A DNA stretch of 25,514 nucleotides from a virus. Lineage: Duplodnaviria > Heunggongvirae > Uroviricota > Caudoviricetes. Position numbers: made by a program. The stretch is from positions 1 through 25,514 of the IMG/VR virus record IMGVR_UViG_2537562192_000014; one strand, 5' to 3'. Positions 6,001 to 9,000 of the stretch are shown here, piece by piece (positions within the stretch are counted from its first letter, which is position 1; every line of letters begins with the position of its first letter).

Positions 6001-9000
6001 CAACATCTTATAGTAAATTGTTAATATAACAAGGTATTGTATCAAATGAGCCAAAATCTTGATTCAACACTAGAAACATACATCTCTTGGCAGTTAGAGC
6101 AATTTAAGGATAAATTTTTCCCAAACTGTGACGTCATTGCGTACTACGGTGGCATCTTTCCATGGTCAAAAGAAGTTTACCAGCCAAAACTTGAAGCTAT
6201 TGGTGAGATGGCTAACAGTCGTACCAATAAATTTCTTGTTATTATACTCAATACAAACGGTGGTTCTGTTGAGTCTGTAGAAAAAATGGTAGAAATTACA
6301 AGGCATTTCTACCAAGAGGTATATTTTATCATTCCAGACATGGCTATGTCGGCAGGTACAATATGGTGCATGTCTGGAGATAAAATTTACATGGACTATG
6401 CTTCTTCATTAGGACCTATTGATCCTCAAGTGCAATCGTCGGACGGTAAATGGGTTCCCGCTTTGGGATACCTTGATAAAGTTGAAGAAATGATTAATAA
6501 ATCCAGAGAAGGAACCATTACCCAAGCTGAACTGATGATGCTTAGTCAGTTAGATCTGGCGCACTTGCGGAGATATGAGCAAGCCAGAGAACTATCAATA
6601 GACTTGCTTAAGAAATGGCTTGTGGAGTATAAATTTAGAGAGTGGACAGTTCATCAAGGTAACACAAAACGAGGAAAGCTAGTTACCAAGAGGGAAAAGG
6701 AAGCGAGGGCTAAAATGATCGCTACCGCTCTTAGTGACAACGGAAAGTGGCATTCTCACGGAAGAACGATAGGAATAAACACTCTTATCAATGACTTAAG
6801 GATAAAAGTAGAAGACTTTACATACGATAAAGATTTTAGCATGGCGTTAAAAAATATACATAACGTCATTAATGAATACATGTATAAAACAAATCGACAG
6901 GTTCTTGTTCTGTCTTCTTTCCCTTTTCCAGAACAAAGTGAGTCATAAATGAACAAAGACAAATCCCTGACACAACAAGTGGAAGAAATACTTAGCAAGC
7001 AAAAAGTTAGCGAGCAAGGAAAAATGATTCAATCATTAAAGAACAGGGGCTTGATCAACAAGCCTGTTTTTACTTTGGCTTATGGACCAGATATTACAAC
7101 CTGCCAAATGCACCAATAACAAAACCCGGCCTTGGTGCCGGGTTTTGTTTGCCTCCTGCTCGCCCCACCATTTACCAGTGCGCCGTAAATTCCCCATTCT
7201 TCGTGGCGGTGAGGATGTCAAAGACGAAGGGAACATTAAGCCCCTGTGTGATGGTTGACTTCTTTTTCCAGCGCCTTATTAACAAAGGCGTTCAGTGATA
7301 AATCTTCTTCCATCGCCATTTCTGCTACCCGACGATGCAGTTCTGGATCAAGCCTGACGTTAAACACACCTTTAAACGGGGTATCAGGCTCCTTTCCATC
7401 CTCCACACAAGACTGTAAATACAGCTCAACCGATGTCTTAAACTCCTGTTCCAGTTCAGCTAATGTAGAAGCCTCATAAGTTACCAGGTCTCGAATAAAC
7501 GCCAGTTTTCCGTACAGGATATTATTTTCAAAATCTGGTTCTACTGTACCTAAATATCCTTTATATTTTAGATGCTTCATAATACCCCAGCCTCTTTCAG
7601 ATTCTGTTTAATCGCTTTCAGCGTTCCACCTTTAATATAACTTTCTGGATGTGGGCGATGCATTAATATGGTGTGGTTGATTTCAGCATTGAAAAACCGC
7701 ACTCTTGAGCCCTGCATTTCCTTTTTGACATATCCCAGAGAGGAAAACAAAACGACCAGCTCATCCCATTCAAACGTTTTTTTACTGTTTAAAAACTTTT
7801 CCAGTAGCTTATCTGCTTTCCCCATACCCACATAATCTCATCTTCGCTACATTGCAACTAATTATAGTTACAGGCAGTGTTTTTGTCAAAAGCCACCAAG
7901 CCCGCTGGGTTCTCTTTGACTGTTCGCTGCTTTTCTTGGTGTTATCAGGGGGCTTTTCCCTCACGCCAAATCTCACATAGAGTAACCGGCCTCCGCGTCG
8001 GTTTTTCTTTGACCGCACTCCGCTAACCGCCCCCTTGAAAAATAAATCACTTTAAAAATCAGTTAAGTAATATTTTTTCACCCCCAATAACCACTAACGG
8101 TATTTACATGAAAATCACCGCAAGTTATATTTATTTCAAGCTAGAAACATCGCGCCCTTACACAGGGCTACATAAATCAGTCGTACGGCGCGACTTAACC
8201 CGCCGCAAAATGCTCTTTAACAATCTGGAGCTTTACAGCGTCAATGACCTGTTTAGACCCCTACACGTAAACGTGCTGTATCATCGGGTGCGATCCGGTC
8301 GATGAGAGAGTATCCCCGCGCGAGAGCGAGAACGGCGTGAGAACGGGCAACACTGGCAGGAAGTTGGCGCTGACCAATACAGGGAATGTTTTGGGGTGCA
8401 GGCGGCACCGCCAAAGCATTTCCGAGAAAGGACGGTATTGACTGCGTGTGATGTCGGGGCTATATTTGGCGAACACCTTATAAAACGGGTGTCGGGATTC
8501 TCACCCCGCTGACAATCGAGGCGATACAGACGCGCCAGCGTCTTTTTTTGTATCAACATACACGCACATCTTATCAATGGTGGGCTGTATGGGGCCGACT
8601 TCGGTCGGGCTGGTTCCCTTGATTGCCAGTTGTGAGAACCCTGTACAGTCCACCGCCAGCGAGCTTCTCACCTCCAGCGGTGGTTATCAATCACCAATCA
8701 AGGAGGCTGCCATCATGGCTACTATCTCTCCCCTTTCTCGCCCATCCGTAACTATTGAAAACGGCAATGCCATCACTACGTCAATTGACATCGCAGAGTT
8801 CTTTGAGAAGCAACATCACCATGTTGTTCAGAAAATAGAATCCCTCGAATGCTCTGAGCAATTCTTAACCCGCAACTTTTCGCGGGTTAAATTTGAACAC
8901 CGAGGCAATACCTATAACGCCTATCAAATCACCAAAAACGGATTCGTCTTCCTGGTGATGGGATTCACTGGTAAAAAAGCCGCTGCATTCAAGGAAGCCT

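Follow-up and report, generated by a model that had tools for sequence, protein, structure and literature searches.

Introduction

The founding hicAB locus, the 'hif-contiguous' locus of Haemophilus influenzae, is found on the chromosome, next to a pilus cluster. Here we describe a hicAB toxin–antitoxin pair in the immunity region of a prophage, on a 25,514-nucleotide (nt) stretch of DNA from a virus of the class Caudoviricetes (IMG/VR record IMGVR_UViG_2537562192_000014, positions 1 to 25,514; this whole stretch is called the window below). The window is a Shiga toxin (Stx) 1a-converting lambdoid prophage of Escherichia coli, with a backbone related to the Oslovirus-type Stx phages. The H. 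influenzae antitoxin (Q9LA69) has the same PF05534 architecture as the HicB found here and is 62% identical to it. The pairs carried by IncX4 plasmids (pJIE143, p14EC007a; PMC11878559) share with the present locus an 82-residue HicA, a 4-nt overlap between the genes, a HicB of 114/115 residues, the absence of an internal terminator, and the same promoter and palindrome. They differ from it in their carrier, which is a conjugative plasmid rather than an Stx1a prophage, in about 9% of the DNA, and in the 5′ leader and Shine-Dalgarno region; downstream of the phage copy, moreover, comes a bidirectional terminator that is part of the phage. Lin et al. 2025 (PMC11878559) distinguish a 'HicA-O-B' subfamily, with overlapping open reading frames (ORFs) and no internal terminator, from a HicA-T-B subfamily with <26% protein identity and a 24-bp intergenic hairpin. 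In the overlapping subfamily the hicA and hicB mRNAs are equimolar, and in E. coli K-12 the IncX4 HicA acts as a toxin that HicB neutralizes completely.

Structural precedents are provided by the B. pseudomallei HicAB complex (6G26, 4C26, 6G1N) and Y. pestis HicA3 (4P78), which resemble the present proteins in the fold of HicA, similar to a double-stranded RNA-binding domain (dsRBD), in the combination of a partial RNase-H domain with a ribbon-helix-helix (RHH) domain in HicB, and in the order of hicA before hicB, but which are only 10-22% identical to them in structural alignments. Among phages, a Megablast search of positions 7100-7950 against the phage collection found nothing, and a search at the protein level found hicA-hicB in the immunity regions of mEp234, HK106 and mEp506 (GenBank EF120460.1, deposited 2007). 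In these three phages the pair occupies the same slot, between cI and Timm/oL/pL in the place of rexAB, and their HicA belongs to the same clade as ours, with an N-terminal extension, a conserved H-x-P-H-P motif and, at the GS[H] position, a residue other than histidine. Given this precedent, the presence of hicAB in the cI-pL slot is not new. The proteins are nevertheless only 35% (HicA) and 42% (HicB) identical, and in mEp234, HK106 and mEp506 the genes are co-directional with cI and part of its operon, whereas here they are convergent to it and have their own consensus promoter. The likeness to the rexAB genes of lambda is one of position only, both being accessory genes between cI and pL that are expressed in the lysogen; the proteins are unrelated, and rexAB is transcribed with cI from pRM, while hicAB lies on the strand opposite to cI and is served by a promoter of its own.

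Results

The genes at 7236-7825 encode HicA and HicB

The antitoxin gene hicB (7236..7580, minus strand) encodes 114 amino acids, with an N-terminal partial RNase-H-like domain and a C-terminal RHH domain, and its start overlaps the stop of the toxin gene hicA (7577..7825, minus strand) by 4 nt, in an ATGA at 7577-7580. HicA matches the full length of the Pfam profile HicA_toxin PF07927 (positions 1-58; E 1.2e-11, 45 bits against a gathering score of 27), and HicB matches Pfam HicB PF05534 (E 7.5e-20, 71 bits against a cut-off of 21). Full-length matches were likewise found to phrog_8887 'toxin' for HicA (9e-35) and to phrog_9151 'HicB-like antitoxin' for HicB (3.9e-50), and RefSeq names the two products as a HicA family toxin (WP_000513533.1) and a HicB family protein. 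The initial annotation, made from the sequence before any database search, had proposed a HicA-like toxin and a HicB-like antitoxin and had named profile confirmation among its checks. Both proteins lie above the curated Pfam cut-offs, and the Pfam, PHROG, fold and RefSeq evidence all bear the proposal out. The toxin length of 84 residues given at that stage needs correcting. It corresponds to the longer ORF (7577-7831, minus strand) that begins at an in-frame GTG at 7831, but all HicA homologues begin MGK/MSK and the RefSeq gene is 249 nt long, so that HicA almost certainly comprises 82 residues from the ATG at 7825.

AlphaFold models of both proteins, built from homologue alignments, were compared with known structures by Foldseek. 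The HicA model (predicted local distance difference test score, pLDDT, 89.5) consists of a helix at residues 22-31, strands at 35-38, 43-48 and 53-58, and a helix at 68-81 (84-residue numbering), and its best matches are T. thermophilus HicA 1whz and B. pseudomallei HicA 6g26_E/F and 4c26, with probabilities of 0.82-1.00 and template modelling scores, relative to the target, of 0.58-0.71. The HicB model (pLDDT 88.8) has strands between residues 4 and 37 and then a helix at 40-60, that is, a partial RNase-H-like fold, and best matches B. pseudomallei HicB 6g26_A/B and 6g1n (6g1n_C), TTHA0281 2dsy, and 6g1c, with probabilities of 0.91-1.00. Single-sequence searches of the PDB gave no hit, and shallow profiles gave no HicA match; a profile of 92 sequences of the clade reached the HicA proteins of B. 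pseudomallei and Y. pestis.

For the C-terminus of HicB the sequence matches are weak but consistent, and indicate an RHH DNA-binding domain. Residues 72-112 give weak matches to Arc-like repressor PHROGs, residues 72-114 match the CopG RHH structure 9kkd in a profile search (E 0.004), and helices at 79-91 and 96-112 come after an FNVRL strand motif. The pair therefore belongs in class 4 of Gerdes 2024, the hicAB systems with an RHH-type HicB (PMC10865869).

The layout of an 82-residue HicA, a 4-nt overlap and a HicB of 114-115 residues was found in every relative examined. With its ATGA overlap and its identity to the IncX4 pair of about 91% in DNA and 96% in protein, the locus has the features of the HicA-O-B subfamily, and the terminator scan reported no terminator-like site inside hicA or at the hicA/hicB junction. 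The 'internal terminator' model of the IncI2 type (HicA-T-B) was considered and ruled out, as the ORFs overlap here. Profile, fold and comparative evidence thus agree, and confirm that the ORFs at 7236-7825 are HicA and HicB.

A self-contained cassette shared with plasmids

The hicAB region is 100% identical to three chromosomes of Shiga toxin-producing E. coli, for example that of strain 2015C-3121, where it lies in an Stx1a-converting prophage. Its plasmid relatives delimit a self-contained cassette (7227..7891, minus strand) that consists of promoter, hicA and hicB. Over exactly this interval the DNA is 91.6% identical to an IncX-type plasmid, the homology stopping 2 nt upstream of the -35 element at one end and 9 nt past the hicB stop at the other. 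Matches to the cassette were found in 801 plasmid records; these are mostly of IncX4 plasmids, the mcr-1 plasmid pESTMCR among them, with some of IncI2. In chromosomes, a set of 5,426 complete E. coli genomes gave 12 places with a match (about 9-12 genomes). Using pESTMCR (NZ_KU743383) as the IncX4 reference, HicA and HicB are each 96% identical to the plasmid proteins, with three of the 82 residues of HicA differing. The differences in DNA from the IncX4 and IncI2 copies are mostly synonymous, and the ratio of non-synonymous to synonymous substitution rates (dN/dS) of 0.014-0.070 places both genes under purifying selection.

A consensus promoter overlapped by a candidate operator

Upstream of hicA lies a sigma-70 promoter (7861..7889, minus strand) with TTGACA at 7889-7884, a spacer of 17 nt and TATAAT at 7866-7861. 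It had been noted as near-consensus; it is in fact stronger than that, since all 12 of 12 positions agree with the consensus, and it is unique in the window. The exact arrangement of TTGACA-17-TATAAT occurred in none of 100 shuffles, and the expected count with at most one mismatch is 0.15. Transcription would start near 7853-7855.

We aligned the regions upstream of hicA from this prophage and another E. coli prophage, from IncX4 and IncI2 plasmids, and from two loci in Photorhabdus and one in Salmonella. Conserved among them are the -35 element, an 8-4-8 inverted repeat (TGTAACTA-NNNN-TAGTTACA) and the -10 region; the flanks vary. In the phage copy the repeat reads TGTAACTA-TAAT-TAGTTGCA (7853..7872), with seven of eight arm positions matching, and is centred on the -10 element. 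The arms are kept across genera and are perfect in the Photorhabdus and KY204 copies; the four central nucleotides vary (TAAT, CTGT, TTGT, TTAT). It is the single site in the window with at most three mismatches, against an expectation of 0.08. As such a pattern fits the site of a dimeric RHH repressor, the palindrome is likely to be the operator of HicB, a prediction based on the mode of action of RHH-type HicB proteins (PMC10865869).

At the other end of the pair, a bidirectional intrinsic terminator (7118..7153, both strands) lies between hicAB on the minus strand and a cassette of a protease gene and a 56-residue ORF on the plus strand. Its hairpin (7118-7149) has a 13-bp stem with a GC core and is flanked by U-tracts on both strands; the folding energies for the two strands are -23.2 and -24.5 kcal/mol, with z-scores of -3.4 and -3.2. 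A simple terminator scanner missed it because the stem absorbs part of the U-tract. The hairpin is found 86 nt beyond the stop of hicB, outside the cassette shared with plasmids, and in other prophages it travels with the 56-residue ORF. A bidirectional terminator shared by hicAB and the protease cassette had been proposed from the outset. Its existence stands, on the folding and the U-tracts of both strands, and that hicAB makes use of it is plausible. A further hairpin immediately past hicB (7245-7228) is weak and not significant (z -1.3). As had also been claimed, hicAB and the cI-side cassette are convergent, the pair lying on the minus strand with its own promoter and a terminator in between.

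An exchangeable slot next to cI

Backbone identity to P13771 and PhiR12_3 breaks off at position 5622, which lies 14 nt beyond the stop of cI, and sets in again at 7986. Within this interval P13771 and PhiR12_3 carry a methylase and a restriction endonuclease, or a BsuBI remnant, and since these sister phages hold restriction-modification genes there, we regard 5623..7985, between cI and the early-left region, as a variable cargo slot. In the window it contains a small membrane protein, a Clp-fold protease of the SDH family, the 56-residue ORF, the terminator and hicAB. In strains 48 and JNEC-KY204, hicAB adjoins a different cI.

The slot of the JNEC-KY204 prophage (L007 5872-6722) also contains a Panacea-domain protein and a hypothetical protein, divergent beside hicA, and therefore holds two toxin–antitoxin-like modules. 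The ORF directly after cI in the window (5705-5866, plus strand), annotated as a 'transmembrane anchored protein', matches no family and is shared at 94% with the same prophage, which has a different cI. At the far end of the slot, where the backbone homology resumes, a terminator-like hairpin was found by the scanner (7984..8003, plus strand; -13.7 kcal/mol, z -3.2). The matching point in P13771 lies 22 nt past the endonuclease stop, and the hairpin is probably the backbone's own terminator, closing the cI operon.

Proposed mechanism

We consider it highly probable that the locus is a working, autoregulated type II HicAB module whose own promoter drives its expression in the lysogen, and that it is carried as exchangeable cargo of the slot. 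The consensus promoter (7889-7861) would transcribe hicA and then hicB, the two being translationally coupled through the ATGA overlap, and transcription would end at the bidirectional terminator (7118-7153). HicB dimers, either free or bound to HicA, would occupy the 8-4-8 palindrome over the -10 element and so repress what is otherwise a very strong promoter, while the N-terminal domain of HicB would cover the RNA-binding face of HicA. Free HicA, as an RNA-targeting toxin of dsRBD fold, would arrest growth. Operator binding, translational coupling, the RNase chemistry and the benefit to the prophage are the steps that we infer here.

Several points weigh against a module that works in this way and serves its host element. 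The position of the canonical catalytic histidine is occupied by arginine in this HicA (Arg41, 82-residue numbering), and in front of hicA the phage copy has a weak Shine-Dalgarno sequence. After 80 generations the competitive advantage conferred by the IncX4 pair had reached only 3:1 (PMC11878559), and in P. putida prophage P1 a functional HicAB was without effect on the stability of the prophage or on defence against phages (PMC12894663). Finally, HicA, HicB and the neighbouring ORFs match no family of PADLOC-DB v2 at E <= 0.01.

A HicA clade without the canonical histidine

The first of these points concerns the whole clade, which takes in this phage copy, the copies on IncX4 and IncI2 plasmids, mEp234 and numerous loci of gamma-proteobacteria. 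In characterized HicA proteins the catalytic histidine lies in a G-S-H motif (His24 in B. pseudomallei, His28 in Y. pestis, His23 in E. coli; PMC11594946). In the 92-sequence profile, the G-S-R of the clade aligns on the 'GS[H24A]' of B. pseudomallei and the 'GSH' of Y. pestis, and the column of the canonical histidine holds R in 76 of the 92 members, A in 6, G in 5 and H in a single one; mEp234 HicA has a glycine there. A histidine is found elsewhere, at position 56 (82-residue numbering), in 91 of the 92 members. It lies within a two-residue insertion at the end of strand β3 and is followed by an invariant His59 in a P-H-P motif. The solved HicA structures lack both this insertion and the N-terminal helix of about 20 residues, which is likewise specific to the clade. 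Judging from the register of the hairpin in the model (strands 43-48 and 53-58, 84-residue numbering), Arg41 and His56 should be cross-strand neighbours.

With arginine at the canonical position, the usual histidine-dependent RNase chemistry cannot be assumed for this protein, and the case for an active site like that of the solved HicA proteins is weakened. The 96%-identical IncX4 HicA is toxic, however, so that the clade is active without the canonical histidine and the missing residue does not lower the case for membership of the family. One could speculate that the toxins of the clade use a relocated RNA-cleaving active site, or another mechanism, and, separately, that the prophage and the IncX4/IncI2 plasmids cross-neutralize each other's addiction; for the two statements jointly, this is a tentative proposal that is rather less probable than its negation. 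The arginine in place of the histidine, together with the clade-specific histidine nearby, is a previously unreported detail, and the missing canonical residue is the one mildly novel thread here.

Biological role

The gene context favours defence or inter-element competition. Among the possible roles we rank inter-element competition or defence against superinfection first, an anti-addiction effect against IncX4/IncI2 plasmids second, and stabilization of the prophage third.

In the first of these, infection would free HicA, by a shut-off of transcription, a loss of HicB or a phage trigger, and the ensuing RNA damage would halt the lysogen and protect its sister cells, making the slot a defence island similar to rexAB. 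The cargo of the slot is in line with such abortive infection or superinfection exclusion: sister phages hold restriction-modification genes there, a Panacea-domain pair lies next to hicAB in JNEC-KY204, and the position is that of rexAB. A defensive role of HicA has also been argued from gene context by Gerdes 2024 (PMC10865869), and a HicA-domain protein has been validated as defensive (PMC13092281). The validated system, from DefensePredictor, was the only experimentally defensive one with a HicA domain that we found; it is however a fusion protein of 472 residues and not a hicAB pair, and we dropped it as direct support. Further counter-evidence comes from the lack of a PADLOC match, from the P. 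putida prophage HicAB and the HicAB of Adephagia, neither of which has shown a defence phenotype (for Adephagia, no targeted phage was found; PMC11594946), and from IncI2 plasmids, in which removal of hicAB left resistance to lytic phages unchanged. We thus hold a role in defence to be possible, at well under even chances.

The 96% identity to the plasmid pair suggests a second role, as an anti-addiction element directed at IncX4 and IncI2 plasmids. Prophage HicB would neutralize plasmid HicA, allowing these plasmids to be lost without killing the cell; alternatively, the cassette might be a selfish mobile addiction unit in its own right. The near-identity of the proteins fits either version, as do the limits of the cassette, which coincide exactly with a promoter-to-stop unit, its distribution of 801 plasmid records against 12 chromosomal places, and the effect of the IncX4 pair in plasmid competition, which is measurable though small. 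Against this, the IncX4 pair is reported to be dispensable for plasmid stability, an earlier study, as cited in PMC11594946, having discarded a role of IncX4 hicAB in plasmid maintenance. The anti-addiction view is moreover purely inferential, and we regard it as doubtful, with about one chance in a few of being right.

For toxin–antitoxin modules on mobile elements the classical role is anti-curing. Applied to the prophage, its loss would be followed by the decay of HicB, leaving a longer-lived HicA to arrest the cells, and the promoter of the pair's own means that expression is expected in the lysogen. Several observations make this role unlikely. Excision and stability of the P. putida P1 prophage were unaffected by its HicAB, in lysate the HicB of the related plasmid subfamily remained stable for 12 h (PMC11878559), and chromosomal carriage of the cassette is limited to about 9-12 of the 5,426 complete E. 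coli genomes.

The protease cassette is an independent module

The initial annotation had also grouped hicAB and the neighbouring protease cassette into a compact accessory island of 2.2 kb. The cassette comprises a Clp-fold serine protease of the SDH family (6037-6948, plus strand) and the 56-residue ORF (6949-7119, plus strand; phrog_28875). Protease, 56-residue ORF and terminator (5958-7155) occur at 92% identity in about 12 genomes that lack hicAB, and in L015, a lambdoid prophage of the classical kind that has cII, O, P and N, the protease and the 56-residue ORF lie directly between cI and N, the position of rexAB. Conversely, strains 48, FHI_NMBU_10 and JNEC-KY176 have hicAB with the 56-residue ORF and without the protease, and hicAB is also found without the protease in JNEC-KY204 and in hundreds of plasmids. 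The two modules occur together, at 99.8-100% identity, in five genomes. The adjacency that had been pointed out is real, but as each module is found without the other, what had been called an island is a mosaic, its modules being independent and not forming one functional unit.

This distribution also bears on the idea that hicAB and the protease act as one unit, for instance with the protease degrading HicB to trigger the toxin. The two are neighbours, with a single terminator between them, and co-occur in those five genomes, but they are encoded on opposite strands and have separate promoters, and the protease is missing beside hicAB in four strains and the plasmids just as hicAB is missing beside the protease in about 12 genomes. 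Functional coupling was rejected, on the grounds of distribution, as very improbable. The segment 6936-7155, with the 56-residue ORF and the bidirectional terminator, is common to protease-only and hicAB-only prophages, and may be the recombination joint that united the two modules.

We can practically dismiss the suggestion that the consensus promoter, which does fire toward the cI operon, serves the phage circuit as an antisense promoter, or that the ORFs are decaying remnants, because hicAB is accompanied by this promoter on plasmids and in other genera, a strong terminator stands between the promoter and the genes on the cI side, and both ORFs are intact with dN/dS <0.1.

The early-left region and the origin of the window

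A gene for N was not found between hicA and the Rha gene, where matches to isrK-like and C4-like RNAs were found instead. In a search for oL/pL by 13-mers common to the cro-cI intergenic region and 7890-8600, only T-rich chance matches appeared and no shared operator, so that the pL-like region named in the initial annotation is at most putative. The early-left control region looks more like a C4/antirepressor module of the P1 type than like the pL-N region of lambda. The match to the Hfq-binding RNA isrK (8473-8548, plus strand; 58.7 bits) reaches the Rfam gathering level, as does that to the C4 antisense RNA (8573-8660, plus strand; 77.1 bits), which overlaps the 5′ end of the Rha/Ash ORF (8577-9359). 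A promoter-like TTGACT-17-TATATT (8438-8466) precedes the isrK match, and a terminator-like hairpin (8528-8543) ends it. A third Rfam match, to sRNA-Xcc1 (17247-17336, plus strand; 65.4 bits against a gathering score of 53), lies in the early-left gene block.

Differences in insertion sequence (IS) content set the window apart from strain 2015C-3121. The RecT-like gene (10204-11205) is intact in the window, whereas 2015C-3121 has an IS1A insertion there (window 10340-11053), and the IS3 insertion of that strain is absent from the window. The reverse complement of the IS1A region of 2015C-3121 matches positions 25121-25514 of the window at 100% identity. From the IS1A and IS3 differences, the window derives from a close relative of 2015C-3121 with a different IS content.

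Discussion

The value of the pair as a discovery is small: its genes were already annotated, a near-identical plasmid pair has been tested, and a hicAB pair in a lambdoid immunity region was deposited in 2007. It does offer a concrete test system, both for phage defence by a canonical hicAB pair and for the missing catalytic histidine of this HicA clade. For the Stx phages, the locus marks the stretch from cI to the early-left region as a site at which restriction-modification, protease, HicAB and PanA-type cargo are swapped, and, within that cargo, hicAB as a promoter-to-stop cassette that moves between Stx prophages and IncX4/IncI2 plasmids of the mcr-1 type.

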